A stretch of 40,000 nucleotides of DNA from the NCBI RefSeq assembly GCF_024347395.1, contig NZ_AP025472.1, positions 1,564,465 to 1,604,464 on the forward strand, in the 5' to 3' direction. Below the pieces are notes generated by a model, which was not told the origin of the DNA, searched no databases, and was given only the letters and a program-made list of their open reading frames with translations. Source of the DNA: Vibrio cortegadensis. Lineage in GTDB: Bacteria; Pseudomonadota; Gammaproteobacteria; Enterobacterales; Vibrionaceae. Position numbers and translations under genes: made by a program. Below are positions 4,738-40,000 of this stretch, one piece after another (position 1 is the first letter of the stretch; the number at the start of each line of letters is the position of its first letter).

Positions 4738-5400
4738 ATGAAAAAATTACCGCTCGCACTAATTGGATTGTTTCTTGGAATATCTGTCAGTACCGCTCAC
4801 GCTCAAGAGTACATGTTTACTTATTCAAAGCTTTATAGCCAAATAAAGAATAATAATAAAGAGGGGCATGACGATGTTAAAGTCGGAGTGTTCTTTGTTG
4901 ATGCTGATACAAAGAAAATCTGTACGATTGACAAAGCTTGGATGGAGAAAGAAGAGCATTATGAAGAGTTCGTCATTCCAAGTTCGAATGAATTACCGAT
5001 CCCTTTTGATATGAACTTGAAATCAGCTAATCCATTAGTTTTCGTACAGACAGAGGAAAGTGTTCAGTGCGATTATTCATTGGTTGTGATGACTAAGAAA
5101 CCGCTAGAAGGCCGAGTTAATTACGCGCAAGTTGAACAATTATTACCTCAAATGCAAGTGATGCTTGAAGACTTAGGCGGCATGTTTGCCAGTTGGTTTA
5201 CGCCGGAAGTTCAAGGGTTAACACTTGAATTCTCAAACAACATTAATGGTCATATCAACGTATCAAATGGAAAAGTGATTCCTATTGAAAACGGAAAAGC
5301 GGCTATTACGTTGAATGATATTCCACAAGATGGCTATTTGACTTTGCCTCAAGAGACCTTGCGTGTGCTTCCTTATTTACCCTCAGCGACACAAGAATAA
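4738..5400 (+). CDS. Exported hypothetical protein
   Basis: 220 aa with a clear Sec signal peptide (MKKLPLALIGLFLGISVSTAHA/QE). No motif recognised. Confidence 0.6.
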   Translation: MKKLPLALIGLFLGISVSTAHAQEYMFTYSKLYSQIKNNNKEGHDDVKVGVFFVDADTKKICTIDKAWMEKEEHYEEFVIPSSNELPIPFDMNLKSANPLVFVQTEESVQCDYSLVVMTKKPLEGRVNYAQVEQLLPQMQVMLEDLGGMFASWFTPEVQGLTLEFSNNINGHINVSNGKVIPIENGKAAITLNDIPQDGYLTLPQETLRVLPYLPSATQE

Positions 5401-5661
5401 GACAGTACTAAGATAGCAGTACAAAGATAAAGCAGCACTAGCCGGGTCAGGTTAAAGGCCCGGTTAAATAAAGTAATAACCTATCTCCTCGCATATTTAA
5501 ACGTCCTGATAATTTCATCTTACTTCCGCCACTCAAGTTGTTAACTTCAGTTTTGTTGATCTGAGTATTCCATGATTCATTAAAACTCCGTATAATCGCC
5601 GCCCTAAATTGAATCCAACATAACATCAACGTCGATTTTATCGATGGTATGAGAACTCGCA

Positions 5662-6555
5662 ATGAATCAAACAGATAGCCAAAAAGATAACGTAGAATTT
5701 AACAAACTTGAGAAGCGTTTACGCCGTAATGTAGGTAATGCGATCATCGACTACAACATGATTGAAGAAAATGACGTTGTAATGGCATGCATTAGTGGTG
5801 GTAAAGATTCATTTGCGATGTTGGATATTTTGCTAAGACTTCAAAAAGCAGCTCCAGTGAAGTTTAACGTTGTTGCGGTGAATTTAGACCAAAAACAGCC
5901 AGGCTTCCCTGAGCATGTTTTGCCTGAATATTTCGAGAGTCTTGGTATTGATTACTATATTGTCGACAAAGATACTTACTCCGTTGTAAAAGAGAAAATC
6001 GAAGAAGGCAAAACGACATGTGGACTTTGTTCTCGTTTACGTCGTGGTACTCTTTATTCATTTGCAGAGAAAATTGGCGCGACTAAAATTGCATTAGGTC
6101 ACCATCTAGATGACATCGTTGAAACTATGTTCTTAAACATGTTCCATGGTGCTCGTTTAAAAGCGATGCCACCTAAGCTTCGTTCAGATGATGGTCGTAA
6201 CGTTGTTATTCGCCCTTTGACCTACTGCCGAGAAAAAGACTTAATTCAGTACGCAGAGCACCAACAGTTTCCGATTATTCCTTGCAACCTTTGTGGCTCA
6301 CAAGAAAATCTTCAACGTCAAAGCATTAAAGCGATGCTTATTGATTGGGATAAGAAAACACCTGGCCGAGTTAATCAGATTTTCAAATCTCTACAAAACA
6401 TTAGCCCAAGCCAGCTAGCGGATAAAGAGCTGTTCGATTTTGTGAATTTACCTCTTGATCGTAGCACTGAAAAACCAGAGTACCTATTTAACGAAGAGAC
6501 TATTTCTTCAACGAATATTGACGAATCTATGTATATCAATGTTGCTAATATCTAG
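5662..6555 (+). CDS. ttcA: tRNA 2-thiocytidine(32) synthetase TtcA
   Basis: 297 aa with the PP-loop motif CISGGKDS and cysteine motifs [10 protein letters not shown] and CNLCGSQ, all characteristic of TtcA. Confidence 0.9.
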
Positions 6556-19511: not shown

Positions 19512-19539
19512 ATTTAACATAATACACATAATACGCACC
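19512..19539 (-). other. dif: dif-like XerC/XerD recombination site A (11-6-11)
   Basis: The minus strand reads GGTGCGTATTA-TGTGTA-TTATGTTAAAT. The XerD arm equals the Vibrio/E. coli-type TTATGTTAAAT arm as I remember it. The site lies exactly at the boundary between core genes and phage DNA. Confidence 0.8.
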
Positions 19540-27742: not shown

Positions 27743-28687
27743 ATGCGAGTTAGTTACTTTGGCTACCATTTGAACAATATAGACAATCAACACAAAACAT
27801 TGTTTGATATTCGCCCTTTTTTGCATTCTTTTTGTGCTTTAGATGCTGTTCAGTATAAAAATAATTTCACACACTCAGGCGAGCATTTGTATCTTTTTCC
27901 CGTTCATGGTGATGTATTTATGTTCGTAATGACACGTAGCAGTGACATTATCCGAAAAGTAAACACTAGAGAAATTACGGTAGAACAAATTCGTGATCTT
28001 TTAGGCGAAGATAACCAACTGGGGTTTGCTTCATATGTCCTTATCACTGAAAATTGCTTTGGATTCGGTTCAACTTTACTTGCACCTAAATCTGATGTTT
28101 TTATAGAATTTATTAACACAATCTTCATATCTCTTGGTATTGTTAATTGGAAATTAATTCCTTTTGCTTTAACTCATCAAGCTACACGTGCAGAAGCCAT
28201 GGAAATGTCGATTATAGGAACCACTGTGATCGAAATTTCGAAGGAAAATACTTTTGCAGAAGATTTCTTGAGACAATTAGGGATGACTACTGAGGAAACT
28301 CATAATTTAGAAGGCTTTGAATTGACATTTAAGCCTCGGTCAAGACAAAACATTAAGCCCGTTATTACAAACGTATTACAGCAGGTACCCGATGATGGCA
28401 TTACTAAACTGATTATCAAAGCTAAAAATGAAGTATCAGGGCACATGACCGATTTGTACCTAGTTAACTCTGGAATCTTACAAGATGATGTTAATAACTC
28501 TAGTGATCTGGCCATTGCCAGAAACATGGTAACTAAAAAAACCAACAACACCCTATTAACTGAAAAACTTGAGGAGTTTACACAAAATGAAGACCTCTCG
28601 GAAAGCACTATTGACGCTATTTCTCGTTATAATCACATCACTGCCTGGACCGATTTTGTATCTACTGTACAAACTGTTAGTGAATAA
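27743..28687 (+). CDS. rexA: RexA-like abortive-infection sensor protein
   Basis: 314 aa. Several blocks resemble lambda RexA as I remember it: HLYLFPVHGDVFMFVMT versus YLYIHKIDGKTFLFTKT, LGFASYVLITENCFGFG versus LGFPSFLFVEGDTIGFA, FELTFKPRSRQNIKPV versus LDIVIKPKFKRDIKKV, and IIKAKNEVSGHMTDLYL versus SLRAKDEAGDILTEHYL. Confidence 0.7.
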   Translation: MRVSYFGYHLNNIDNQHKTLFDIRPFLHSFCALDAVQYKNNFTHSGEHLYLFPVHGDVFMFVMTRSSDIIRKVNTREITVEQIRDLLGEDNQLGFASYVLITENCFGFGSTLLAPKSDVFIEFINTIFISLGIVNWKLIPFALTHQATRAEAMEMSIIGTTVIEISKENTFAEDFLRQLGMTTEETHNLEGFELTFKPRSRQNIKPVITNVLQQVPDDGITKLIIKAKNEVSGHMTDLYLVNSGILQDDVNNSSDLAIARNMVTKKTNNTLLTEKLEEFTQNEDLSESTIDAISRYNHITAWTDFVSTVQTVSE

Positions 28688-29051
28688 GGTATTAATTGAA
28701 CCTATTGTTTTAGTCGAACAGAAAACAAATATTGCCATTATATTAGCGACATTTGCGTTTACGATGATGGGTTTTTTAGCGGCTGTTATTACTATTTTCT
28801 TTTCGTTCGCTAAATCGAGAACGTTCAAGAAATTCAGCCGTGAAGGTCGTTTTGGCGTATTTTTTACTACTTATTATTACTGTATTATTTCACTCGCTCT
28901 AACCATGTGCTTTGCTTTGGTTACTTTAGGTAAAGGCACCTCTATATGGGCTATGCAAACAGCACTGATTACGACAGTAAATAGCTTATTTCAAATCTGC
29001 TTGATTACTTTTACTATCATTAATTTGAGTAAAAGGGCGATGAAGGAATAG
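28587..29051 (+). CDS. rexB: RexB-like four-TM membrane protein
   Basis: 154 aa from the ATG at 28587 (GAGGAG at 28571-28576). It has four hydrophobic helices, and the loop and tail resemble lambda RexB from memory (FAKSRTFKKFSREGRF versus IGSRTRRLAKIREYGY; FQICLITFTIINLSKR versus IHICILVFQLYNLTRE). It overlaps the rexA-like 3' end by 101 nt in another frame. Confidence 0.65.
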   Translation: MKTSRKALLTLFLVIITSLPGPILYLLYKLLVNKVLIEPIVLVEQKTNIAIILATFAFTMMGFLAAVITIFFSFAKSRTFKKFSREGRFGVFFTTYYYCIISLALTMCFALVTLGKGTSIWAMQTALITTVNSLFQICLITFTIINLSKRAMKE

Positions 29052-29079: not shown

Positions 29080-29451
29080 CTAACTGTTCATTATTAACGC
29101 AATACTACGAGCATATTTAAGCAACTTTGACATTGTTTTTACATCTAATTCTGCTTGAATTTCTAACAAAGCAATTCCAGTTAAAATCTCTTGTGGGGTC
29201 ACTAATTGGCCTGTCGGTAGTTCCAGTTTATCATTGCGCATGATGAATAGATTCCAATTATCTGATGGGGCAAGCTCTTTACCTTTATACATTTTCATTA
29301 ATCGCCGACACTCTGGCGGAATAGCTTTTCCTGCGTCCCAAAGCTTGACCGTCCTCACACTTTTAAAACATAGTTCAGCCGTCTTTTCTATACTAATTCC
29401 ACAAACTAATTCACGAAAAATATAATTTTTAGTCATTTCGTGGTACTTCAT
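29080..29451 (-). CDS. HTH + DUF3653-like protein (XafT-like candidate Xer activation factor), copy 1
   Basis: Likely ATG at 29451 (MKYHEMTKNY). It has an HTH-like segment TAELCFKSVRTVKLWDAGKAIPPECRRLM, then W..F......L.LPTGQLVTPQEI. It is a paralogue of the gene at 29779 and starts ~50 bp from dif-like site B. Confidence 0.6.
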   Translation of the reverse strand: MKYHEMTKNYIFRELVCGISIEKTAELCFKSVRTVKLWDAGKAIPPECRRLMKMYKGKELAPSDNWNLFIMRNDKLELPTGQLVTPQEILTGIALLEIQAELDVKTMSKLLKYARSIALIMNS

Positions 29452-29503
29452 TGATAACTCTCTCAAATGAGAAAGATATTATAAAAAGTGCGTATGCAAC
29501 TTG

Positions 29504-29532
29504 ATTTACCATAAGGGCGCATAATACGCACC
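29504..29532 (-). other. dif-like site B with a 7-nt spacer (attP/dif hybrid junction)
   Basis: The plus strand reads ATTTACCATAA-GGGCGCA-TAATACGCACC. The XerC arm is identical to site A. The XerD-type arm has one mismatch (C for A). The orientation matches site A. Confidence 0.7.
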
Positions 29533-29778
29533 GAGGGATTGTTTATTAACATTTGGTAAAACATTGATTAACGCATACATAAGTAATTGATACTTATGCC
29601 GAATTTATATTTAAACCCTATTTAATAACGTTTTGAAATACTTATGATTACTGGCGCTTGCTTTACGTAATCACAGCAAAAAGTCTCTTTTTCCACTGAG
29701 CGACATTTTGTCACGTGAATTGTTAAAAAATCATAAGAAAAAAATATTTCGTCAGTTATTTTATTTGTGAGGCAAATC

Positions 29779-30201
29779 ATGTTTTATGAGTCATTTAAAG
29801 TTCTGTTTTGGCGTGAGTTTACCTCTCACCGCCAAGGTGCTGAGTTTTTCCATGTGAAGATTGTCACAGTTCGACGTTGGCTAGACGGCAAAATCCCTGT
29901 CAATCCGATGGCTGAAAAACTCTTAATCATCAAATCACTTGGTTACTTGCCTAATGATATGCGTTGGCGTGGCTTTCGTATCTGTGAAAAACGTGCGGTG
30001 CTTCTTACCCCAACTGGACGCGAGTTCAGCCCTAAAGAATTAGAAAGCTTTGTGTTTTGGCGTGATGAACATCGACAATTGGTTGAGCAACATGGTCATG
30101 TGGATTACCCAAAGGTTTACCCTGCAAAAGAAAATGTGTTGCCGTTTCGTGGCGGTCGCCGAATGCAAGCCGCCCCGTGGATACCGACTAAATTTAAATA
30201 G
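29779..30201 (+). CDS. HTH + DUF3653-like protein (XafT-like), copy 2
   Basis: ATG at 29779 (MFYESFKVLFW, GAGG 6 nt upstream). It has AEFFHVKIVTVRRWLDGKIPVNPMAEKLLI, then MRWRGFRICEKRAVLLTPTGREFSPKELE. It is divergent from copy 1 across site B. Confidence 0.6.
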   Translation: MFYESFKVLFWREFTSHRQGAEFFHVKIVTVRRWLDGKIPVNPMAEKLLIIKSLGYLPNDMRWRGFRICEKRAVLLTPTGREFSPKELESFVFWRDEHRQLVEQHGHVDYPKVYPAKENVLPFRGGRRMQAAPWIPTKFK

Positions 30202-30204
30202 ACG

Positions 30205-30232
30205 TAAAAAAGCCCGCATTAGCGGGCTTTTT
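30205..30232. terminator. Bidirectional intrinsic terminator
   Basis: AAAAAA-AGCCCGC-ATTA-GCGGGCT-TTTT between convergent genes. Confidence 0.85.
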
Positions 30233-30238
30233 CTTTCC

Positions 30239-31216
30239 TCAGAAAGGAATATCATCATCAAAATCCGAAGAAGGTGGCGGTGGCGGCACTTGTACTGTTC
30301 GCTTTTCAATGGTAATAAACGCAGAATTCCAATTTTCAGGCGTGTAAACTTTAAGCGATTTATTCTCGTCAAAAATCTCTTCTGATATGGTTAACTCAAA
30401 TGAGTTATTGTACCAAGACAAATCGCTTCCAAAAGGAAATTCATACTCTTTATAGCCATATGTTTTCAAAATTTCACCAAGTTCTTGAATATTTTGAAAA
30501 TAAACCCGATGACCTATTCCTAGCTTAGTTCTCAACTCACTAAATGCTGGGTGGCTGTTCATCAGGATATTTTGAATTGCGTCACTTCCTCTATTTTTCT
30601 CTTCGCTTAAAAAAGTAACCAACGTTTTTAAAGTAGCTGAGGTTCTATTTATCTCATCAATTAAATTAACTTCTTTTCGTCGAGAGCTCTCACTCAAAAG
30701 GCTCTGAAAAAGTCCTGCCCACTGCTCTTTCAAATGATTAGTGATATCAACTACAGATTCAAATGCTTGTATTTGATTATTGTTAGGAAGTGAATGTATC
30801 TCATCGAGGAATTGAAAAATTCTATTATCATCTACTGATGCATACTTGATGCTGTCATTATCTTTATTTACTTTATATGTTTGATATTCAGCGTATACCG
30901 TTTTTTCAATAAAAATATAAAGCTGCTTTCCTTTTTTAACAGCCGTAGTTAACTCCACATTTGATACGGAGTGACTGCTATTCCCATGTTGAGATTGGGA
31001 GCCAAATCGACCGCCAATGACACCAACGACAATATCGCAAATTTCAATTTCTTTATAGCAATACTCTTCTAAACGTTTTTCTGAACCATAAGGAATATTG
31101 CCTTTTTCATTCAAAACCGGGTCATACCCTTGCTCTTTAATGAATCGCTCTAAATCATTTCTTATATATTTCAAGTCATAATAAGTCGAGCTTACAAAAA
31201 CACGGGGCTTTGCCAT
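30239..31216 (-). CDS. DUF4062 (TIR/deoxyribosyltransferase-like) N-terminal domain protein with an SSB-type C-terminal tail
   Basis: Likely start MAKPRVFVSSTYYDLKYIRNDLERFI (ATG at 31216; the ORF is open to 31252). The pattern VFVSST..DL...R..L......GY.PV..E.......E.C..EI..CD..VGVIG.R.G...S....E...A...GK matches DUF4062 as I remember it. The C-terminus verified from DNA is TVQVPPPPPSSDFDDDIPF*. Confidence 0.7.
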   Translation of the reverse strand: MAKPRVFVSSTYYDLKYIRNDLERFIKEQGYDPVLNEKGNIPYGSEKRLEEYCYKEIEICDIVVGVIGGRFGSQSQHGNSSHSVSNVELTTAVKKGKQLYIFIEKTVYAEYQTYKVNKDNDSIKYASVDDNRIFQFLDEIHSLPNNNQIQAFESVVDITNHLKEQWAGLFQSLLSESSRRKEVNLIDEINRTSATLKTLVTFLSEEKNRGSDAIQNILMNSHPAFSELRTKLGIGHRVYFQNIQELGEILKTYGYKEYEFPFGSDLSWYNNSFELTISEEIFDENKSLKVYTPENWNSAFITIEKRTVQVPPPPPSSDFDDDIPF

Positions 31217-31296
31217 GTTAAACCTATAATGTAAAAATTGATAATTAATCATATCACTTTAATCTCATACATAAGAATGATGACTCATACAAATAA

Positions 31297-31332
31297 TAAA
31301 AAAGCCGAACCCCATCACGGAGTTCGGCTTTT
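31297..31332. terminator. Bidirectional intrinsic terminator separating the DUF4062 cassette from the corticovirus-like late genes
   Basis: An A-run, then AGCCGAAC (31303-31310) pairing with GTTCGGCT (31322-31329), then TTTT. Confidence 0.8.
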
Positions 31333-31462
31333 GGTTTCCAGTGCAGCAAGCAAAAGCGCACTAAGGTGTTTAATGATTTATAAAACAACCACTTGAACGT
31401 TAACAATGTGTGCGTTAGATGTAAACCATATGGCACGTATGTTTTGAAATGACTCGCACGCC

Positions 31463-31648
31463 CTAGCCCTTTTCTAATGTTTCTAGTACCAACACACGGT
31501 CAGAAACGGCGCGCAATCCCTTTGATAACTCTTGAATGATGTGGTTTTGGTTTCGGATGTTTATGATCATCAAAATACCCAACACCAAAAACTGAGGTGA
31601 AATGCCCCATTCCACCAAGGCGTTAAACAGCGTGCTTTCCATCATCAC
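31463..31648 (-). CDS. Small membrane protein, lysis-cassette accessory candidate
   Basis: 61 aa with one TM (ISPQFLVLGILMIINI). It overlaps the upstream holin-like gene and is the last gene of the operon. Confidence 0.4.
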   Translation of the reverse strand: MMMESTLFNALVEWGISPQFLVLGILMIINIRNQNHIIQELSKGLRAVSDRVLVLETLEKG

Positions 31649-31850
31649 CGCCCTTGCCTTTCAATTCATCCCGGAATGCTTCCCACAACCCAACCACCGC
31701 AGGAATGGCAAGACCAACCGCACCGCCAAGATTTACGCCCGTTTGGGTAATTTCAGCACTGAATAAATGACCGTAGCCCGAAGATGCCGCAATCACTGAA
31801 CCAAGCAGCACAAGACCGCGCCACGTTGATGTTTGTTTAAGTTTTAGCAT
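31623..31850 (-). CDS. Holin-like two-TM protein
   Basis: 75 aa with two hydrophobic helices and a charged C-terminus (DELKGKGGDDGKHAV), downstream of the putative muralytic gene. Confidence 0.45.
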   Translation of the reverse strand: MLKLKQTSTWRGLVLLGSVIAASSGYGHLFSAEITQTGVNLGGAVGLAIPAVVGLWEAFRDELKGKGGDDGKHAV

Positions 31851-31862
31851 GTGTATTCCTTA

Positions 31863-32318
31863 CTATGCGAGTTTGACGCCTTGCATGGCATCGCTGAATG
31901 AGTAATGGCGACCCACTTCCATGATTGACATAGAGTGCAGCACTTTAGCCAATAGTTGGTCATCGTTTAGGTTGATGGATTCATTGACGCCAACACCGAC
32001 CTGTTTTGCTACGAACTGTGCGTAATTCTTCGTATCATTTTCTACTGGCGGTGCGAATCGGTTAATGATTTCGTTTAGATTGTCGAGTCCATGCGCCCGT
32101 TGATAGGTTCGCAAGGTTTTAGCGCCCGCCCGAAAGCCATATTTATGATGGGTATAGCTTTCAAATTCAGCATCACGGGAAAAGCTTGTTTCCCCTTGCC
32201 AATCGTTGCCTTTTCGAATGTTCAGCGGGTTATTGTTGCGAATTCCGCGGATGGTTTTTTTTGTCATATAGAGTGCAAAGCCCCCAAAGAAAATGAAGAT
32301 AATCAGATATAAACGCAT
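31863..32318 (-). CDS. Membrane-anchored phage protein with an RNNNPLNIR motif (putative muralytic/structural)
   Basis: 151 aa with an N-terminal TM and the motif GIRNNNPLNIRKGNDWQGE, which recurs in phage virion-associated or cell-wall-active proteins as I recall. Function not certain. Confidence 0.45.
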   Translation of the reverse strand: MRLYLIIFIFFGGFALYMTKKTIRGIRNNNPLNIRKGNDWQGETSFSRDAEFESYTHHKYGFRAGAKTLRTYQRAHGLDNLNEIINRFAPPVENDTKNYAQFVAKQVGVGVNESINLNDDQLLAKVLHSMSIMEVGRHYSFSDAMQGVKLA

Positions 32319-32320
32319 GG

Positions 32321-33340
32321 TTACACCTTGTAAAAATCAAACCCTGTCGGCATGGATGAATATTGAAAACTCATTTGCATGGCTTCAAGCTGTGCCGCCG
32401 ATGGGATATGGTCAACGGGATATTGGAACACCTTATAATCGCTGCCATGCTCGGTGATGGTTTGCACATGATAGCCAGATGCCAACATATGACGCGCCAT
32501 GCCAAACGGCGCATGAATTGCGTTGTGGTTAAAGCGAATCAAGCCCGCGCCCAAATCTTCAAAACCTATGGGTTTCATACAATCGGTCGCTTGGTAGTAT
32601 GGCGGCGCATGAGTAAATTCAAGCTTGGCAAGGTCGGCATCATCTGCCACAAACCCACACACGCCACGTTGAAGCCCAACAATGCCGGAATTTCTGACTT
32701 CCAAATACAACGCAACGTATGACGGTTGTTCAACCTGTACATTATTTTTCAGCGCACCAGAATCACAAGTCACAAAGCCGTCACCCGCAAAATCGGTGTG
32801 AATTTTTGAAGCTACTTTGTCGCCTAGCGTATGGCTGCCATCTTCACTCATGTGAATGAATCGAAAACCCACTTCCACCTCCGCGCCCGCCAATGCCATG
32901 ACATTGAACGCCGCACGAACAGACTTGCTTTCATCATTTTGTGGTGCGACCGGACGCAACACTTGATACATGGTGAAACCTTGGCACATGATTTGTGCAA
33001 AGTGCCGATTGGGTAACGTGTTGAGGTAATAATTACCCACACGGGACACGGGCGCGGTAATGCCCGCACCTGGTTGAACTTGAATTGCCCAACCATGCGC
33101 CAACATGAATTCAGCGCGCCCACCTAATGAGGTGACATTTAATGAAAATGGACGGTCAGAGCGTGATTGCGTGGTGACAAAACCACGGGCGCACATGCCA
33201 TGAAAATGACCGTTATCAATGAGGTTTGTGACTGCACCACCTGCCAACTTGCCCAACTCTTCGGCAAGGTATTCAATTTTGTTTCGGCTACTGCCATGCG
33301 GCAAATTTTTAAAAATTTCGTTCATGGGGTAAAGCTCCAT
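32321..33340 (-). CDS. Putative vertex/spike (receptor-binding) protein
   Basis: 339 aa, similar in size and position to the PM2 spike protein P1. There is no motif-level support. Confidence 0.35.
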   Translation of the reverse strand: MELYPMNEIFKNLPHGSSRNKIEYLAEELGKLAGGAVTNLIDNGHFHGMCARGFVTTQSRSDRPFSLNVTSLGGRAEFMLAHGWAIQVQPGAGITAPVSRVGNYYLNTLPNRHFAQIMCQGFTMYQVLRPVAPQNDESKSVRAAFNVMALAGAEVEVGFRFIHMSEDGSHTLGDKVASKIHTDFAGDGFVTCDSGALKNNVQVEQPSYVALYLEVRNSGIVGLQRGVCGFVADDADLAKLEFTHAPPYYQATDCMKPIGFEDLGAGLIRFNHNAIHAPFGMARHMLASGYHVQTITEHGSDYKVFQYPVDHIPSAAQLEAMQMSFQYSSMPTGFDFYKV

Positions 33341-33350
33341 AATTTGAGTG

Positions 33351-34010
33351 TTAAGACTCTAAGATAAATACGCGGTCAGTTGCAGCGCCCGTGAGTGCAA
33401 TGAGTGCGGAAGATTCAATATCAATCCGCTCACCCGCACTAAGTGGGTAAGCATTGTTAATCAACACATCACCTGTATTGGCGGTTGCTGCCTTGATGGT
33501 CACTTTGAAACGTGATGAATCAAAAGGAAGTTCAACGGGCAATGCTGAATCTTGTGCATTGATGCTTTTACTTCTCTTGAGTACCACAGGCGTTCGCTGT
33601 GAGACTTTAATCACTTGGTCGGGCGCAATTTCAACGGGCGGTAATGTTTCAAGGCTAACGGTTTGACCTGCTGCAATTTCCACCGCAGGAAGTGAATCAA
33701 TCGACGCGGTTAAGTGTTGGTTTTCTGCAATCACCATTGCGGGCATCACGCTTACTTCAAGCTGTTGCCCTTCCATTGGTGGCGTAAAATCTCCCACGCC
33801 ATGCTCAAACACCAAGCGACCAACGCCCGTGATGAAAATGCGCCCAAAGCGACTACCTGTGTTTTTATACAGTGATTTTTGCGTAAGCGTAAAAACCGCA
33901 CCTGTGGACTCAATTTCAATCTGAATTTTGCCCGTGGATAACTCCACAAACAGCCATTCAGAATCAAGCGTGACAGGGATTTTTTGTCCTTCAATAAGGT
34001 TCAATTCCAT
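33351..34010 (-). CDS. Putative structural protein
   Basis: 219 aa with a beta-rich composition. Its start overlaps the upstream stop by 1 nt. Confidence 0.35.
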   Translation of the reverse strand: MELNLIEGQKIPVTLDSEWLFVELSTGKIQIEIESTGAVFTLTQKSLYKNTGSRFGRIFITGVGRLVFEHGVGDFTPPMEGQQLEVSVMPAMVIAENQHLTASIDSLPAVEIAAGQTVSLETLPPVEIAPDQVIKVSQRTPVVLKRSKSINAQDSALPVELPFDSSRFKVTIKAATANTGDVLINNAYPLSAGERIDIESSALIALTGAATDRVFILES

Positions 34011-34426
34011 TACTTAACCGCCTTATAAGTGACAAAACCCAACACGGCAGCAACGAACATCATTAAGTACAAATTCATTGAATTTTGCTTACTTTGCCCG
34101 CCGTCCTTATTGAATTTGGCAAGCTCCATCATCGCGTTAATGTTTTTTGTGTTTTGCGTGGCTTGATTACCCGCAAGCCCTGCCATCATTTGCAAATTTT
34201 CACTGTTGCTTGAGCTGTATTCCTCCAACACACCGGAGGCAAAATCTGTGTTGATTTCGTGCATGTTTTCGGCGGCTTGAATTGCGCCGTGGTCGGTAGC
34301 GGTCACATTGATAGTGGAGTCATTGACTCCACTAATCGCCGTCCCTAAGTTGTCACCACTAATGGCATTTTGACCGCTAACGTTAGTGGTTTGGGTTTTG
34401 TTACTGGATTTGGATTTTCCACCCAT
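34010..34426 (-). CDS. C-terminally anchored virion membrane protein candidate
   Basis: 138 aa, Ser/Asn/Gly/Gln-rich, with C-terminal TM LYLMMFVAAVLGFVTY. Confidence 0.45.
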   Translation of the reverse strand: MGGKSKSSNKTQTTNVSGQNAISGDNLGTAISGVNDSTINVTATDHGAIQAAENMHEINTDFASGVLEEYSSSNSENLQMMAGLAGNQATQNTKNINAMMELAKFNKDGGQSKQNSMNLYLMMFVAAVLGFVTYKAVK

Positions 34427-34428
34427 GA

Positions 34429-34800
34429 TTACACCTTCATTTCCATGTGGGTTACGTCACCACATGCGTGTTCTTCGGTACTCAGGCGGCGACACAATCG
34501 CGCCACCAATGGAAAATAGGTTTCTGCTGAAATAGACGATAATCCCGCGCTTTTTACGTAGGCTTTCAACTCTCGCATTGCCGGAATAACGCCGCGTCCA
34601 GAAACGCCCCAAAGAAAGTAAGAATGACCGATAATCTCACCCGCCACCGTGACACGGTAACTATCATCAGATAACTCATAAAGGCTTACGCGCCCTGCGT
34701 TCACCTCATGTTTGAGTTTTTCAAATTCAGCCGGACAAGCTCGAAATGCTACTTTCAACCGCGCCAATGCGCGGGGACTATCAGAAACCAATTCAATCAT
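34429..34800 (-). CDS. Hypothetical phage protein
   Basis: 123-aa soluble protein with an ATGA overlap on the upstream gene. Confidence 0.4.
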   Translation of the reverse strand: MIELVSDSPRALARLKVAFRACPAEFEKLKHEVNAGRVSLYELSDDSYRVTVAGEIIGHSYFLWGVSGRGVIPAMRELKAYVKSAGLSSISAETYFPLVARLCRRLSTEEHACGDVTHMEMKV

Positions 34801-34991
34801 CTTTTAAGTGCCACCAAGGCAATCACTGCCACTATGCTCAATAACAGCCAAGGCTTTGCGCCTTTTGAGCCTCCCATACTAATCCCGCCCACGCTTTGCC
34901 CTGCGTTGGTGGTATTGGCGGCGGTCGATGGTCCCGCAGAACCACCCGTGAAACCGCCACCCCCTGTTAAACTGGTTAAACTGCCTAACAT
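34797..34991 (-). CDS. Gly-rich small membrane protein
   Basis: 64 aa with a Gly-rich N-terminus and C-terminal TM WLLLSIVAVIALVAL. It resembles the small internal-membrane proteins of PM2-type viruses. Confidence 0.45.
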   Translation of the reverse strand: MLGSLTSLTGGGGFTGGSAGPSTAANTTNAGQSVGGISMGGSKGAKPWLLLSIVAVIALVALKR

Positions 34992-35000
34992 TCGTCCCCC

Positions 35001-35135
35001 TTAAAAGAACTTGAGCATGGCAAGAATCGCCACCAATAGCGCCGCGAACCATAAGAGGTTTTTGGCGCCATCACTGAGACTAAACCCGACCCATACACCA
35101 GTAAGCGCAACCACCGGATAAACAATCAATGGCAT
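35001..35135 (-). CDS. 44-aa two-helix membrane peptide (not in the ORF track)
   Basis: My translation is MPLIVYPVVALTGVWVGFSLSDGAKNLLWFAALLVAILAMLKFF. It fills the gap between flanking genes exactly. Confidence 0.4.
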   Translation of the reverse strand: MPLIVYPVVALTGVWVGFSLSDGAKNLLWFAALLVAILAMLKFF

Positions 35136-35136
35136 G

Positions 35137-35478
35137 TTATTTCCCCTTCACTGCGAAATAGACCGCGCCCGCCAATACCAAGAACCCGCCACCAATGGCT
35201 AAATACATGCCGTAGTTATTCGGCGATTGGCGATAAACCACATCGCCATTAGGTTGTTGGTAATCGTTGCCGTCCCCACGGTGTGCGCTTGGGTTCGCTG
35301 AGTTAGATTGTTGCGCGTCTTCGTTGAGTTTGTTGGTGATAAGGTCGGGCGCAATGTCCCCGACTAAATCCACCGCACCACCAATGAGTTCACCGCCACT
35401 TTCTAAGATGCTTTCCCACCACGAACTTGACGAGGACTCGTTAAAAATATCCATATCGGTTTCCTTTGGTACTGGCAT
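35137..35478 (-). CDS. Small virion membrane protein candidate
   Basis: 113 aa with C-terminal TM MYLAIGGGFLVLAGAVYFAV. Confidence 0.45.
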   Translation of the reverse strand: MPVPKETDMDIFNESSSSSWWESILESGGELIGGAVDLVGDIAPDLITNKLNEDAQQSNSANPSAHRGDGNDYQQPNGDVVYRQSPNNYGMYLAIGGGFLVLAGAVYFAVKGK

Positions 35479-35486
35479 GACGCCCC

Positions 35487-36320
35487 TTACTTGGCTTGTG
35501 GTGAGATTTCGCCAACTTGCTCAATGGCTTCGATAATCACAGGCACGCTTCCCGCGCTTGCTTTCTCTAATTCAAATTGCAGTTGTTTAGCGGCATTGGT
35601 AGAAAGGCGACCTTCAACACCAAAACCAGTACGAACAAAATCAAGCGTGAACCATCCCGCGTTTTGCTCTAAACCCGCCACGGCAAGGTCAAAAGCGTTA
35701 TCTGCTTTAGATACGTTGATTTCTTCACGCTCGTCACGCATGACACGAACACGGTCAATCGTGTCGTCTTTGAAGTGAATACGTTTGATTGAAAGGAACG
35801 GTGAACGCTCGGCAAAATCGAACGGAGTGCGACCGGACGCCGCCGCGTACCACGTTAATGAATACAGACGCGGCAAATAAATGCGGCGAGATTGGGCGGC
35901 GGTTGTGTGGGCGCGTGCTTTGATTGATGGCGCGGCTTGGTCGGCTTTGGCTTTAAGCTGAATGTAAAGCATCCAGATTTCACCCTGTAGCGTCACCAGT
36001 TCACCCGTGCGAACACCCGCCTTTGTGCGAAGCGTTAGATCAGCAAATGGGATGATGTAGCGCCCTTTTTGCGTGAACTGTTTGCGGTGCTCTTGAAAGT
36101 CCACCAAATCTTGACCTGTCACACCAATGATTTCTTTACCGTTTAACTTGAGCGTGACGCGCTCAATGTCTGCTGGGTCAAGAATGTCAGTGACTAATTC
36201 AATGTTTTGGTAAGTGGGACCCGTTACCACGCGCAATGTTGCCTGATTACCCCAGTTAACACCTTCAACCGGGTCTAACTCACGTGGGCGTGGGTTAAAT
36301 GGTGTGTTCATCATTTCCAT
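35487..36320 (-). CDS. Major capsid protein, PM2 P2-like (double jelly-roll lineage)
   Basis: ~277 aa from MEMMNTPF. Blocks resemble PM2 P2 as I remember it: PTYQNIELVTDILDPADIERVTLKLNGKEI versus QTYEVIDLRYSGVTPSQIKNVRVELDGRLL, FTLDFVRTGF versus YTIDFMLEGD, and a similar C-terminal LQFELEK...IIEAIEQVG. The size matches. Confidence 0.65.
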   Translation of the reverse strand: MEMMNTPFNPRPRELDPVEGVNWGNQATLRVVTGPTYQNIELVTDILDPADIERVTLKLNGKEIIGVTGQDLVDFQEHRKQFTQKGRYIIPFADLTLRTKAGVRTGELVTLQGEIWMLYIQLKAKADQAAPSIKARAHTTAAQSRRIYLPRLYSLTWYAAASGRTPFDFAERSPFLSIKRIHFKDDTIDRVRVMRDEREEINVSKADNAFDLAVAGLEQNAGWFTLDFVRTGFGVEGRLSTNAAKQLQFELEKASAGSVPVIIEAIEQVGEISPQAK

Positions 36321-36457
36321 TAGAACCACCCCTTATCACCATTAATCGTGTCTTTTACAGCGCCTAACGCTGACACGTTGTTAATAAGGGCAAGAATGCC
36401 AACCGTAAGCAATACCGTAGTGCCTAGGGGAATAAGCGTGCTTTTATTTAGTTTCAT
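36320..36457 (-). CDS. 45-aa membrane peptide, first gene of the structural operon (not in the ORF track)
   Basis: My translation is MKLNKSTLIPLGTTVLLTVGILALINNVSALGAVKDTINGDKGWF. It has a GGAAAGG RBS and a TAATG overlap with the capsid gene start. Confidence 0.4.
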   Translation of the reverse strand: MKLNKSTLIPLGTTVLLTVGILALINNVSALGAVKDTINGDKGWF

Positions 36458-36541
36458 AAACCTTTCCAGTTTGTGAGTGAATAAATCATTCAATAGAGAG
36501 GCTTTAAGGTTGGCGATTTTGAGGAAATTAAACAGAGGGAG

Positions 36542-36576
36542 TAACCTAATAGGTTAAGGCTTTAACCTATTAGGTA
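36542..36576. promoter_or_regulatory. Twin palindromic operator-like sites
   Basis: TAACCTAATAGGTTA (36542-36556; AACCTA-A-TAGGTT is a perfect dyad) and TAACCTATTAGGTA (36563-36576). The centres are 21 bp apart. They lie in the 200-bp gap between the structural operon and a divergent small ORF. Confidence 0.55.
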
Positions 36577-36659
36577 AAGAGGATAGAAACGAACGATTGC
36601 TTTTATATTTCTTGTTTGCGATATACAATACGCAAAACCATAAAACAGCGTAGATATGC

Positions 36660-36944
36660 ATGTCTGACCTAAAGTTTTCTCCCACTAAATTGTTTAACCT
36701 AGCATCGAAAAAAATTAATGATTACCTTGATGAAGCACTTGAGAATGAAAGAATTAAGCAAGAAAACCATCCACAGCGGCTTGAAGAAATAAGAATTGAA
36801 GGCGAATTTCGACGCAAGCAGCAAGCAGAACGACACAAACAAAAAATAGCAAAAATACTCAGAGAGACTCCTCAGGTTTCCCCAGAAGACCAAGCCATAT
36901 ATGATGACTTTGTTCGAAAATTGGAAAAGGAAGGGAAAATGTAG
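36660..36944 (+). CDS. Charged coiled-coil hypothetical protein on the opposite strand (regulator or moron)
   Basis: 94 aa, Lys/Glu/Arg-rich and AT-rich compared with the surrounding prophage. It is the only plus-strand gene inside the minus-strand train. Confidence 0.4.
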   Translation: MSDLKFSPTKLFNLASKKINDYLDEALENERIKQENHPQRLEEIRIEGEFRRKQQAERHKQKIAKILRETPQVSPEDQAIYDDFVRKLEKEGKM

Positions 36945-36973
36945 GCGACAAGCTATTTTATCGCCTAATAACA

Positions 36974-37699
36974 CTAGTTAAGACAGTTGATTTCGCCGCG
37001 TTTAACATTACCAATGCCATCACAAAACATCAGATATTGGGCAATGCCTTGGTTAGTTTTGGCGGTTTTAAGGCTTGCCAGTTCGTTGACATCATGGCTT
37101 TTTTGGTCGGCGATGTAGTTTGCATCTGCCATGCTTGCCAAGCCACCCACCCACCATGTAGGTGATTGACTGCTGACGGTTTTCGGCACTTCCTGCGTGC
37201 GTTGGAATGTGGAATGGATAATCAAACCAAATTGACGCCCACCGCGCCACAGTTCGCCCGATTTGCCTTTTAGCTTGCCCGTGGTTTCAACTGTACTGGC
37301 TAACTCTTCAATCCCAACGTAAAGCGGCGGTTTCTGTCCATCGCCACAACTCCAGACAATCGCCGCAAAGGTTTCAAGGTTCACGCCGTTTGCTTCCTTA
37401 ACCAACGCCAGTTTAAACCCTGTTTTCTTACTGCGTGCCGCCACCAAAGCGCGGGCGAACGGGGCAAACTCAGTAAACATTTTGACTTGCTGCCCTTGGA
37501 ACTTCTTACCCGCATAATTTTGGTATGGGTCAAAAAATACCGCTTGGCTTTTCTTGGGTATCAAGCCCAATTTTTTCACGGCGGTGGTCTTCCCGCTGCC
37601 CGTAGTACCGATATAAACGCAATGCTCGGCATCCAGTGCCGGATTGCTGTTAATCGGCATAGGCAATCTAAGCGGCGGCTGTTTCGCTTTCTTTGCCAT
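36974..37699 (-). CDS. P-loop genome-packaging ATPase (PM2 P9 / FtsK-HerA-type)
   Basis: 241 aa with Walker A GTTGSGKTT and a Walker B-like LYVGIEELA. Size and position are typical of membrane-containing tailless phages. Confidence 0.65.
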   Translation of the reverse strand: MAKKAKQPPLRLPMPINSNPALDAEHCVYIGTTGSGKTTAVKKLGLIPKKSQAVFFDPYQNYAGKKFQGQQVKMFTEFAPFARALVAARSKKTGFKLALVKEANGVNLETFAAIVWSCGDGQKPPLYVGIEELASTVETTGKLKGKSGELWRGGRQFGLIIHSTFQRTQEVPKTVSSQSPTWWVGGLASMADANYIADQKSHDVNELASLKTAKTNQGIAQYLMFCDGIGNVKRGEINCLN

Positions 37700-38180
37700 C
37701 GTTCGCCGCCTCCGCTTGCGCTTTCATCAGTTGTTCAGTTTGCAGACGCTTAATGATGTTAATGCTTGAGTAACCAAGCCCCACCGTTGCCACGCCAAAC
37801 ATGATCTCTTCTTTGTAAGCATCAAACCATTTCAGCCACGTTAAACCGTACTTACCAATCAAGGGCGCGCACGCTTCAAGGAATTTAGCGCGGGCGGTTT
37901 CATCAAAGGCAAAATCCACACCGGACGCACCCGAAATGTATTGCTCAGACATGAACAGACCCATATCAACAAAGCCCACGGCGGCGCTTGGGTCGAGTGC
38001 TTCGGGTTGGTCTTCTAATTCCGTTTCGGGTTCATCTGGCGCGCCACTTTCCACCGTATCGATGGCGTCTAAATCGGCAAACGCTTGGTTAAAATCTTGT
38101 GCCATTGGTGCGGTTTGGTTGTCGGCTTGATGTTCGGTTTCAAGCTCGGTGTTTTCTGGTTTATCCATGTGCGGGTACAT
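37668..38180 (-). CDS. Acidic hypothetical protein
   Basis: 170 aa with a strongly acidic N-terminal half (DAIDTVESGAPDEPETELEDQPEALD). It overlaps both neighbours. Confidence 0.4.
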   Translation of the reverse strand: MYPHMDKPENTELETEHQADNQTAPMAQDFNQAFADLDAIDTVESGAPDEPETELEDQPEALDPSAAVGFVDMGLFMSEQYISGASGVDFAFDETARAKFLEACAPLIGKYGLTWLKWFDAYKEEIMFGVATVGLGYSSINIIKRLQTEQLMKAQAEAANDGKESETAAA

Positions 38181-38610
38181 CCTTTTTATTCAGCATAAAG
38201 AAAAGCACTATCAGCGCAAACAGCGCCAATAGGTACGGTTTAGCCGTTTCAAGCCTTGTTTTACTTGGCTTGGGCGGCGTTTCGGGTTCAATTGGTGGTT
38301 TGGCTTCCGCGGGTACAACAGGCGGCTTACTTGGCGTTACAGTGTCGCGTTTAACTGGCTCCATTGGCTCAATTTCTGCCTTGGTCGGTTTCATGTTGGC
38401 GTTGATGTAGCTTTGGAATGTTTCGCCTTTGCCTTGCTGAAAGCCGCAGCATGGACAGTTGTAATATAAACGCCCTGTATTGCGTTTATTCTTGGGTGGC
38501 GTGCCGTCGGTAATGATTCGGTGTTCACCGACTGCGTGAACCGTGGCAACCGCGCCACAGTCCGGCATATGACAGCGAACAAACCCTTTAATTGGATTCT
38601 TACTCGCCAT
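38161..38610 (-). CDS. Zinc-ribbon protein with a Pro-rich linker and C-terminal TM
   Basis: Start at MASKNPIKGF (TAATG overlap). It has CHMPDC...CPCC four-Cys ribbon, the linker PSKPPVVPAEAKPPIEPETPPKPSK, and TM PYLLALFALIVLFFML. Confidence 0.5.
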   Translation of the reverse strand: MASKNPIKGFVRCHMPDCGAVATVHAVGEHRIITDGTPPKNKRNTGRLYYNCPCCGFQQGKGETFQSYINANMKPTKAEIEPMEPVKRDTVTPSKPPVVPAEAKPPIEPETPPKPSKTRLETAKPYLLALFALIVLFFMLNKKDVPAHG

Positions 38611-38780
38611 TAAATACCCCCATCCAATTGACGTTCGAGCGTTGCCATGCGTTCGTTGGTTAACTTCATCCAAACCAAAAAGAGGCGAAGTGGTGCCATG
38701 AGTTTGCTTGCAAAGGGATTCTTTGAGGCTTTTTGTACTTCCTGCTCTAATTCGTCAGTGATGTGTTGTGCTTTTTCCAT
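38610..38780 (-). CDS. Small hypothetical protein
   Basis: 56 aa from MEKAQHITDEL (AAGGA RBS), chosen because the longer ORF would overlap the Rep 3' end. Confidence 0.35.
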   Translation of the reverse strand: MEKAQHITDELEQEVQKASKNPFASKLMAPLRLFLVWMKLTNERMATLERQLDGGI

Positions 38781-38845
38781 GTGTTCATTTTCCTTTTTTC
38801 TAGCCAATGAGTGATGTTTTCCCCTGCAAGCAACCCCAAACGGGA

Positions 38846-40000
38846 TTAATTTATTCTCAATCGACCGTTGTTCAGCTTGAGCGTGCAATATTGGTCGATT
38901 GGGACGGACGCGCCATTTTTTAACGGCTTAATCAGTGCAGTAACTCCTTTGATGCTCCATCCGGTGAGCTTTCTTAATTCAATAATTAAGGGTGAGTTAC
39001 ACTTATTTTCAGTGCTCCAAGGGGAGCCGCTCCGCGACTCTAAAAGCCGTGGCAAGTCTTTCGTTTTTACTAAGCTGTAGCACTCGCTTGCTGTTTCGAT
39101 AACCGAACCAAGCCAAGAAAAACCAATAATTTTACGAACGGTTTCACCGTATTGATTTTCGTTGTTTTGATATTCAAGTTTTGCACTACTGGCAAGTTGA
39201 CAAAATAACGCCCACTTGGAGGAATCCGCCGCTTGGCGTAATGCTTCCAATTTGGGGTCGTTGCATGTTTGTTCTTCGGTGGTTTTTCGCAGGGCGCGCC
39301 ATAATGAAACAGGTTCACCACCAAATTGCTGAAACTGGCGAATACGGTGAACCGATGCCCACGCCCGAACCTTAAACGCGCTTTCTTCGGCTTCGGTTTC
39401 TGGCATGTGCTTACCATTGATATTTTTAGATACATACTTGGCAATGTATGCCGTAGCGCCGCCCTTGCTTGGGTCGGATTCCGTCACATCAAAGCGCGGC
39501 GAGGTATCATTGCCCAACTCTTCACGGTCTTCATAAATGGCTTCACTGCGTAGTGTGCTAATCACAAATTGCTTGTCACTTGGGTGGCAAAACAAAAAAT
39601 AGTGGCTGTGGCTTGTGCCATCCTTGTGAGGTTCAGCAACACGAAAACCGAAGTAATCCACCTCTTTTTTAGCCAGTTTGGCGCGGGCAACTGCCCATTT
39701 AGCCATTGATGCAGTGTGTCCTTCTTTGACGCTTGCGCCATTCCAACGGTGTGACACTCGGTGATATTTACTCGGCAACGTCCATGTGATGAAAAGTGCG
39801 GTAAAGCCTAACTCTTCCGCCAACTCTTCAAACCCTCTTGAGCGCACCATCATTTCAATGCGGCGATTTTCGGGATTAGAAACGGTACGCTTGGCAACCT
39901 CTTCAAGTTTGAAATTCTCGCCCGTTTCTTCATTGAACACGCTCATGGACTGCATGAACTGTTGTGATTCTTGCTGCTTACGTTTCCAATTTAAAAAGGA
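38846..40000 (-). CDS. Rolling-circle replication endonuclease, P2 gpA / PM2 P12-like (5' end probably outside the window)
   Basis: HUH-type motif RVAEPHKDGTSHSHYFLF and catalytic Tyr motif ATAYIAKYVSKNINGKH, as in P2 gpA from memory. The frame stays open from 39955 to the window edge (..SFLNWKRKQQESQQF-MQSM..). Confidence 0.8.
   Translation of the reverse strand, partial: SFLNWKRKQQESQQFMQSMSVFNEETGENFKLEEVAKRTVSNPENRRIEMMVRSRGFEELAEELGFTALFITWTLPSKYHRVSHRWNGASVKEGHTASMAKWAVARAKLAKKEVDYFGFRVAEPHKDGTSHSHYFLFCHPSDKQFVISTLRSEAIYEDREELGNDTSPRFDVTESDPSKGGATAYIAKYVSKNINGKHMPETEAEESAFKVRAWASVHRIRQFQQFGGEPVSLWRALRKTTEEQTCNDPKLEALRQAADSSKWALFCQLASSAKLEYQNNENQYGETVRKIIGFSWLGSVIETASECYSLVKTKDLPRLLESRSGSPWSTENKCNSPLIIELRKLTGWSIKGVTALIKPLKNGASVPIDQYCTLKLNNGRLRIN

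Follow-up and report, generated by a model that had tools for sequence, protein, structure and literature searches.

Within a window of 40,000 nucleotides (nt) of Vibrio cortegadensis DNA (assembly GCF_024347395.1, contig NZ_AP025472.1, positions 1,564,465 to 1,604,464; all coordinates below are those of the window) a single gene on the minus strand encodes a DUF4062 protein whose last eight residues, DFDDDIPF, are identical to those of the Escherichia coli protein SSB, which binds single-stranded DNA (...MDFDDDIPF). As in SSB, this tip stands at the extreme C-terminus behind a low-complexity linker. The open reading frame (ORF) extends over 30239-31252 on the minus strand and comprises 337 amino acids (aa), closing in TVQVPPPPPSSDFDDDIPF-stop. 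The C-terminus reads ...PPPPPSSDFDDDIPF, followed by the stop codon at 30239-30241, and the tip is encoded by eight codons at nt 30242-30265. The tail claimed in an earlier reading made from the letters alone (the sequence-only reading) is thus read directly in the translated ORF. The start at 31252 given there lies 12 unsupported codons (36 nt) too early. An identical protein of 325 aa is deposited at NCBI as 'DUF4062 domain-containing protein [Vibrio cortegadensis]'; since this protein (MAKPR...) and all homologues (MA[KR]PR[IV]F) begin at the methionine encoded at 31214-31216, this ATG is most likely the true start, giving a protein of 325 aa. The gene has a GC content of about 34%, compared with 45-50% in the adjoining phage module, and is flanked by two hairpins at 30206-30233 and 31300-31332, in agreement with the earlier description of an AT-rich, insulated stand-alone gene. 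Its parts are the following:

30239-31216, minus strand: coding sequence for the 325 aa of the DUF4062 protein, with its stop codon
30761-31216, minus strand: TIR-like/DUF4062 domain, residues 1-152 (Pfam, Foldseek), with the invariant residues F7 and E88 (codon 30953-30955)
30557-30754, minus strand: long single helix ('stalk'), residues 155-220 (AlphaFold2), opening with the conserved motif LKEQWAGLFQ
30302-30550, minus strand: C-terminal auxiliary alpha/beta domain, residues 223-305, acidic, with HPAF and TPxEW motifs
30242-30301, minus strand: linker, residues 306-317 (KRTVQVPPPPPS), and tip, residues 318-325 (sequence, low model confidence, tail conservation in the family)
30206-30233, no strand: GC-rich hairpin right after the stop, with a 12-pair stem, six GC pairs and T-runs on both sides; it also ends the convergent DUF3653 gene
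31300-31332, minus strand: terminator-like hairpin upstream of the gene, with a 15-pair stem; it marks the boundary of a cargo slot

At E <= 1e-3 the family comprises 2404 proteins in a word-indexed search and 2467 in an exhaustive one. The tail was counted in 207 retrieved proteins sharing the auxiliary domain and recounted without bias in 196 full-length members from more than 12 phyla, to which the conservation values below refer. An ending composed of an aliphatic residue, proline and phenylalanine is present in 158 of the 207. In these 158 tip-bearing proteins position -1 is always F and position -2 always P; position -3 is I in 108, L in 27 and V in 13, position -4 is acidic in 152 (D in 124, E in 28) and position -5 in 142 (D in 115, E in 27). 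Among the full-length relatives 160/196 have F as the last residue and 153/196 end in PF-COOH, so that the claim survives the homologue check proposed in the sequence-only reading. Its acidic positions -4 to -6, the aliphatic residue at -3 and the final Pro (-2) and Phe (-1) give DFDDDIPF the sequence pattern of an SSB-Ct-type docking peptide. The phenylalanine always stands at the very end of the protein, which would be expected of a tip whose alpha-carboxylate is recognised, as it is in SSB. The linker measures 0-43 residues, cannot be aligned and varies in composition; the penta-proline linker noted earlier does exist in this copy and is an idiosyncrasy of it, not conserved in the family. 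In contrast to SSB, no OB fold precedes the tail here and the linker is often missing in relatives.

The background was estimated from the 1064 ORFs with a length of 100 aa or more in 832 kb of retrieved loci. Endings of the type [DE][DE]xPF occur in 63 of them, and all but one of these belong to the DUF4062-tip gene family itself. As judged from these alignments, the tail is evidently under family-wide selection. It also appears to be confined to one clade defined by its auxiliary domain: proteins with the same core and stalk and another C-terminal domain carry a tip in only 3/45 cases, and it is absent from the Staphylococcus aureus protein Eva01, from a Swarozyc-like Vibrio plasmid protein, from plasmid proteins of A. 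junii and Enterococcus and from a DUF4062 protein of an Acinetobacter prophage. The tip status of the Klebsiella pneumoniae protein KpSwz was judged indirectly, by way of the Swarozyc-like Vibrio plasmid protein, which is 79% identical to it in the TIR domain. A query with a 37-aa tail found no match, and a homologue search with the TIR fragment of KpSwz yielded nothing but short fragments.

The Pfam domain DUF4062 (PF13271) is recognised at residues 17-93 of the ORF with a score of 67.3 bits (gathering cut-off 24.7; E = 1.4e-18). An AlphaFold2 model of the full-length protein, built with 50 homologues and reaching a predicted local distance difference test (pLDDT) of 83, consists of four parts, namely an alpha/beta domain (1-152), a long helix (155-220), a small alpha/beta domain (223-305) and a low-confidence tail. 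The N-terminal half of the model matches the TIR domains of the plant protein RPS4 and of SARM1, nucleoside-deoxyribosyltransferase (NDT) and DNPH1 (Foldseek, E 4e-5 to 1e-3, TM to target 0.5-0.75). The N-terminus is thereby confirmed as DUF4062 and, at the level of the model, as having a TIR/NDT-type Rossmann-like fold; the sequence-only reading had assigned it in the same way. The helix 155-220 is modelled with a pLDDT of 71-93, and L162, Q165, G168, L169 and F170 are each more than 96% conserved. The structure search proposed earlier for the C-terminal domain returned no fold match: modelled alone it reaches a pLDDT of 86 and has no significant Foldseek match in the PDB (best E 0.32) or among the BFVD viral structures (best E 0.07). 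A RelE/ParE-like or HicA/RelE-like identity was considered for this domain (NCBIfam E 0.035, Foldseek E 0.3-1.5) and judged to be noise. Across the members the auxiliary domain is acidic (mean net charge -3.7) and its column conservation averages only 0.44. The tail has a pLDDT of 49-63 in the full-length model and of 68-78 in the model of the auxiliary domain alone. No SSB or OB match was found in Pfam and no SSB homology was detectable in the protein; that it is not an OB-fold SSB, as stated before, also agrees with a model made of a TIR-like domain, a helix and a small alpha/beta domain.

The tail is not restricted to this family. The one background ORF with a tip outside it is found in Flavobacterium sp. 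PS2 (locus L032, 6501-7280, plus strand) and encodes a 259-aa protein ending in EVDDLPF. It is the last gene of an island (L032, 4001-7280) which contains, in this order, a DUF4062-tip gene, ThsB (5052-5621), ThsA-Macro (5622-6464) and the 259-aa protein; ThsB and ThsA form a type II Thoeris pair. The 259-aa protein is weakly NDT/TIR-like (Pfam 0.002, below threshold; PADLOC TIR effector 7e-6), and an xPF ending is present in 109 of the best 120 of its 1648 homologues. It thus resembles the DUF4062 proteins in its TIR/NDT-like N-terminus, its C-terminal DDLPF and its residence in the same defence island, whereas homology is limited to the tail. A C-terminal module shared by the two tip-bearing families was tried as an explanation and rejected, as hhalign finds only the last ten residues in common. 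Because the two families are alike only in the tail, TIR/NDT-like proteins have acquired the tip on two or more occasions.

Phage proteins carry the same peptide. In IMG/VR, scanning for DDDIPF directly before a TAA stop yielded a sample of at least 117 ORFs of phages and prophages. Among the 117 sampled, 33 are E. coli-type OB-fold SSBs and 84 are others, including the SF2 helicases L190 and L214 (562 and 610 aa) and many small proteins of replication modules, with MEKRDNSGVLFKND... and MRDLFLDALKRKYEAEI... as recurrent small families; some of the 84 are probably non-canonical SSBs. The phage annealases RecT and Red-beta, for their part, recognise the C-terminal heptapeptide of SSB in a host-specific manner. 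The tip, displayed on phage proteins and read by RecT/Red-beta, can therefore be regarded as a shared currency of phage replication and recombination proteins. While the phage proteins that carry or read it have replication and recombination functions, it is attached here to a TIR-like immune effector.

The tail occurs in dialects, which were surveyed in 80 genomes of Proteobacteria, Bacteroidota, Bacillota, Planctomycetota, Acidobacteriota, Latescibacterota, Cyanobacteriota and others. LPF ends all Bacteroidota copies (28/28), and IPF nearly all proteobacterial ones. In the Bacillota LPF was found in two Paenibacillus copies and one from Lachnospiraceae, and four other loci have no tip. The extended ending GF[DE]DMDDDIPF is shared by 3/10 betaproteobacterial copies and one viral contig, and it also terminates two SSB-like prophage proteins (L194, L261) which were recovered independently from IMG/VR. 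Both the IPF and the LPF dialect also occur among SSB tips: the last seven residues (C7) of E. coli SSB are FDDDIPF, and in Staphylococcus, Bacillus and Deinococcus SSB ends in DDLPF. The SSBs of Bacteroidota probably end in LPF as well. In a neighbour-joining tree of the family proteins built without the tails, the informative cases are the copies of Paenibacillus gorillae and of Latescibacterota, which have LPF inside IPF clades. Taken together the dialects are suggestive of a covariation of the tail with the host lineage. No SSB gene was present in any of the loci retrieved. The sole Vibrio plasmid SSB that was found (V. alginolyticus, L096 501-1040) reads PPMDFDDDMPF followed by a 15-residue extension, QNEFRHYKMLSYVAA, so that its tip is internal; this could be a read-through or a masked-tip variant.

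Two recently described defence systems are based on DUF4062. In Swarozyc this domain is a TIR-like NADase (Osinski et al., bioRxiv 10.64898/2026.05.01.722283). KpSwz of K. pneumoniae (326 aa; PDB 10wc/11cq/11cv) protects E. coli by abortive infection and requires E97 and its auxiliary domain for this; it forms autoinhibited dimers with helical stalks under a TIR-like dimer and is activated when the auxiliary domain binds the dodecameric phage portal (10.64898/2026.05.01.722283). Eva01 of the system Evangelion, encoded by the S. aureus plasmid pMW2 (WP_000072390.1), depends on F11, E87, W162 and the auxiliary region. It reduces NAD+ and attaches to DNA that carries single-stranded overhangs; activation is tied to replication (Ibarra-Chavez et al., bioRxiv 10.64898/2026.06.25.731849). 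Like KpSwz, Eva01 is a single-gene system of abortive infection. Phages escaping Eva01 map to RecA/Sak/UvsX-like recombinases, and the authors leave undecided whether recombination proteins or DNA intermediates are sensed (10.64898/2026.06.25.731849). Neither of the two texts contains 'SSB' or an acidic tail on the protein.

Like Eva01, the V. cortegadensis protein is the product of a single gene, measures about 325 aa, has its DUF4062 core at the N-terminus and an auxiliary region besides, and is carried by a mobile element. However, the identity is about 23%, the alignment is reliable in the core only, the auxiliary region is unrelated, and Eva01 ends in ...GINKHLYE without an acidic xPF tip. 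With KpSwz it shares the order of DUF4062 TIR-like domain, helical stalk and C-terminal domain (the sensor in KpSwz) as well as the length (326 versus 325 aa), but the similarity ends at residue 104 (E = 0.058 with the single sequence). The family profile matches the TIR/DUF4062 chains of KpSwz in the PDB at residues 4-103 only (E = 5.9e-5). The auxiliary domain of KpSwz is a winged-helix portal binder, that of the V. cortegadensis protein has no fold match; the two were compared by sequence only. By its auxiliary region the protein would therefore belong neither to Swarozyc sensu stricto nor to the Eva01 lineage and appears to form a distinct clade of the DUF4062 defence class.

The putative active-site motif of the V. 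cortegadensis protein is S-V-S-N86-V-E88 (alignment residues 83-92, nt 30941-30970), compared with S-Y-T-E85-M-E87-Y in Eva01 and S-F-T-E97-K-A in KpSwz. F7 and E88 align with F11 and E87 of Eva01, and both are 99.5% conserved in the family; KpSwz has an alanine in the E88 column. A candidate catalytic glutamate is hence retained by comparison with Eva01 and lacking by comparison with KpSwz, and activity is predicted from the former: as the column of KpSwz E97 is occupied by N or Q, catalytic competence rests on the precedent of Eva01 E87. The two published systems themselves differ in the essential Glu, which is the first E of the motif S-x-T-E-x-E in KpSwz (E97) and the second in Eva01 (E87); the tip-bearing clade has kept only the second and KpSwz only the first.

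The gene is carried by a prophage, together with these elements:

29767-30201, plus strand: XafT-like gene (Pfam DUF3653, E = 1.4e-20), also part of this prophage and convergent with the gene of the DUF4062 protein
31297-40000, minus strand: conserved module of a PM2-like (Vinavirales) temperate phage, with about 81% nt identity to the Vibrio phages 10N.286.54.E11_PE002B and 52.C10_PE001 (PHROG, Pfam)

The module encodes a transglycosylase, a major capsid protein of the PM2 P2 type, a packaging ATPase and a GPA-type replication protein. The region 29767-31297 was compared with the corresponding regions of related phages (L095 1-2036 and L001 1-1650). Homology to PE002B and PE001 begins exactly at the hairpin (about 31297), which is conserved at 1613-1650 of L001, a related PM2-like Vibrio phage locus. 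PE001 likewise has the order DUF3653 gene, cargo on the opposite strand, structural module; its cargo consists of two unrelated genes (331 and 185 aa) without a Pfam match, and the same slot of PE002B contains a degraded ORF and a repeat-rich region. Because phage homology starts at the hairpin and PE001 shares this gene order, the DUF4062 gene is placed in a variable cargo slot of a PM2-like corticovirus prophage. The gene had been described before as wedged between the XafT-like gene and a prophage, which has to be corrected, since both genes lie inside the PM2-like prophage. Relatives have other carriers: in V. vulnificus a member is a cassette of the chromosomal integron, in Pseudomonas, Francisella and Aeromonas members are lone insertions, and about 33 copies of the same architecture, 27 of them with a tip, are present on IMG/VR contigs. 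The family thus has a single-gene architecture on mobile or defence-associated DNA, and no conserved neighbour or partner gene was found across the family loci compared.

Most likely the tail links the protein to the SSB interactome, as bait or as tether. The explanation favoured here, to which about an even chance is given, is that the gene encodes a stand-alone, prophage-carried DUF4062 abortive-infection NADase whose tip and auxiliary domain are engaged by multimeric SSB-tail-binding phage proteins, which activates the TIR-like domains. Immunity, already suggested in the sequence-only reading, remains the best interpretation of its role, the DUF4062 class being anti-phage (Swarozyc, Evangelion). 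The stalk would probably mediate the formation of a dimer or oligomer. The tip, with its free phenylalanine carboxylate, would insert into those pockets which otherwise hold the SSB tip, and would serve as a bait: phage replication or recombination proteins adapted to the host SSB tail would engage it together with the auxiliary domain. Candidate partners are annealases of the RecT/Red-beta type and other multimeric SSB-tip binders. As such partners are multimeric, they could cluster or re-align the stalks and so activate the TIR-like domains, comparable to the portal-driven activation of KpSwz. NAD+ hydrolysis would then let the infected cell die or arrest before the phage matures. Three elements of this mechanism are inferred: activity of the protein, binding of its tip in SSB-tip pockets, and a role of this binding as trigger and not as tether. 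A wider form of the explanation, which is put forward tentatively and is rather doubtful, regards the SSB tip as a reusable bait module with which several unrelated TIR/NDT-like effectors (the present DUF4062 clade, the 259-aa family beside Thoeris and possibly others) display the docking peptide of the host SSB and fire on phage proteins of the SSB hub.

The tip might also be a mere tether that parks the NADase on host SSB partners or on SSB-coated fork hubs, from where it would patrol DNA synthesis, while the auxiliary domain alone senses the phage, perhaps by a structural protein. The finding that 84 of the 117 sampled DDDIPF ORFs, SF2 helicases among them, are not OB-fold SSBs of the E. 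coli type shows the tip as a general docking peptide; the tail follows the dialects of the lineages, and the trigger of KpSwz, a phage structural protein, is bound by the auxiliary domain. All this would be in line with a tether, which is nevertheless considered unlikely, about half as probable as an even chance would make it: the tip strictly co-occurs with one type of auxiliary domain, suggesting a common target, and because the linker has zero length in many members there would be little reach. Still less probable is a sensing of SSB or single-stranded DNA (ssDNA), where the tip would dock on the OB fold of a host or phage SSB or, as an autoinhibitory latch, on the body of its own protein, until a surge of phage ssDNA or phage SSB displaces or captures it and frees the NADase. 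SSB tips do bind their own OB fold when free of DNA, and phage SSBs trigger other defence systems. The binding of Eva01 to DNA with single-stranded overhangs, its replication-linked activation and the tail pLDDT of 68-78, not below 50, in the model of the auxiliary domain alone point in the same direction. On the other hand, both the protein as a whole and its auxiliary domain are acidic, and a domain with an average net charge of -3.7 is ill suited to receive an acidic tail or ssDNA. An intramolecular latch, moreover, would not require host dialects down to GF[DE]DMDDDIPF, and the tail is of low confidence (pLDDT 49-63) in the full-length model.

For a prophage the protein could also be a means of takeover or counter-defence, competing with SSB for its partners and blunting host exonucleases and helicases or the replication of rival phages, with a non-catalytic TIR-like domain. 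The position of the gene as prophage cargo, the N or Q at the catalytic position of KpSwz and the many phage proteins bearing the tip would suit such a competitor. This is hard to reconcile with the invariant Glu at the essential position of Eva01 and the strong conservation of other DUF4062 core residues, with copies beside Thoeris and RexAB, in integron cassettes and as lone chromosomal insertions outside prophages, and with the fact that all stand-alone DUF4062 proteins for which tests gave a phenotype act in defence; the competitor is accordingly rated very improbable. Hardly more credit, and if anything slightly less, is given to the tail as a degron, i.e. a ClpXP-type tag that keeps a toxic NADase scarce until infection perturbs proteolysis. 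In Streptococcus mutans SsbA the last three residues (LPF) are reported to suffice for degradation by ClpXP, yet the same paper describes recognition as strain dependent and LPF as not recognised by ClpXP in other bacteria; nor would a degron need the acidic residues at -4 to -6 or the extended lineage dialects. That the tail is an accidental acidic end unrelated to SSB, conceivable for a motif of just 5-8 residues, can be given practically no weight: PF-COOH is kept in 153/196 members of more than 12 phyla despite unalignable linkers, the background in the 1064 ORFs is essentially zero outside the family, and lineage dialects as well as a second convergent family exist. The homologue survey refutes a chance resemblance.

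Several observations weigh against the favoured explanation. About 22% of the members have no canonical tip; many of these are near-variants (DDILF, DDIFF, DDEAF), read-through copies ending ...TDDDIPFWRNWVDKRD or truncations. Five of the sequences without it (P0132, P0154, P0163, P0210, P0237) end in DPFAD[EQS] in place of xPF, and this ending might serve for docking on some other partner. In the tree the split between I and L mostly follows protein clades coinciding with phyla, and because I/L is in this way confounded with phylogeny, the dialects are only suggestive of host tracking. The LPF of Acinetobacter JW, a possible counter-example, and the VPF of Sphingomonas have no obvious dialect fit. 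The column of the catalytic KpSwz residue E97 is N86 in the V. cortegadensis protein and N or Q throughout the clade, and scans of the protein with PADLOC (2023) and NCBIfam gave no family match. Finally, the present evidence fits a bait and a tether alike, and it may be the auxiliary domain that does the actual sensing.

Some single copies have altered ends. The Chthonomonas copy (L068) closes with DPFGDG, similar to DPFAD[EQS]. In two close Vibrio relatives (P0006, P0002) the tip is buried by read-through (TDDDIPFWRNWVDKRD) or mutated (TDDDNPFTG). A decaying copy is seen in Dechloromonas sp. ARDL1 (L016), where the gene is split into parts of 247 aa and 171 aa, the latter ending in EEDEIPF.

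Full-text searches of open-access papers and of bioRxiv retrieved no link between the SSB tip and a defence protein. As the class of DUF4062 NADases is already published, the protein is not categorically new. The earlier statement that no defence system built this way had been described is accordingly too wide: single-gene DUF4062 defence is known from Swarozyc and Evangelion, and only the SSB-type tail and the auxiliary domain are new. The novelty thus consists in a conserved SSB-type tail on a defence effector, its apparent restriction to one auxiliary-domain clade and its recurrence on a second TIR/NDT-like family. That DUF4062 NADases are a widespread immune family has been realised only lately. 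Their sensing becomes testable through a conserved handle of eight residues whose binding chemistry is known. If the tail is a bait, immunity would guard the SSB interaction hub by mimicry, which would account for the repeated appearance of phage recombinases and SSBs among the triggers of unrelated systems. The reusable bait module, if it exists, would correspond in prokaryotes to the integrated decoys of plant NLR receptors, guarding a hub which phages cannot easily abandon. The tail dialect could predict the host range or portability of such systems, and SSB tips on non-SSB proteins offer a possible search handle for further defence genes.

Upstream of the prophage slot the window contains an abortive-infection locus:

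27743-29051, plus strand: RexA-RexB abortive-infection pair (Pfam RexA 1.7e-58; PADLOC RexA 3.1e-62, RexB 9.6e-24)

RexAB, in AT-rich DNA (31-36% GC), is a separate unit; about 1.2 kb separate it from the DUF4062 gene. Between the two a Vf33-like fragment was found, with a 128-aa ORF at 29080-29466 on the minus strand (PHROG 1668) and 78% nt identity to a non-annotated region of the filamentous phages Vf33/Vf12. Just downstream of this ORF, at about 29489-29535, are the inverted arms GTGCGTAT...ATACGCAC, which look like the remnant of a Xer-type attachment site. A dif-like site, GTGCGTATTATGTGTATTATGTTAAAT, is located at 19512-19538 and adjoined by an inovirus-type prophage (19.5-26.4 kb) with a DUF3693 regulator, Rep_trans, DUF1293, DUF2523 and Zot. 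The whole stretch from 19.5 to 40 kb looks like an array of Xer-dependent elements. Outside the window, on the A. junii plasmid pAJ_068-3 (L288 955-2843), a Swarozyc-like DUF4062 gene is located directly downstream of a helix-turn-helix regulator and a gene of the reverse-transcriptase family, a cluster which may be a composite defence locus.

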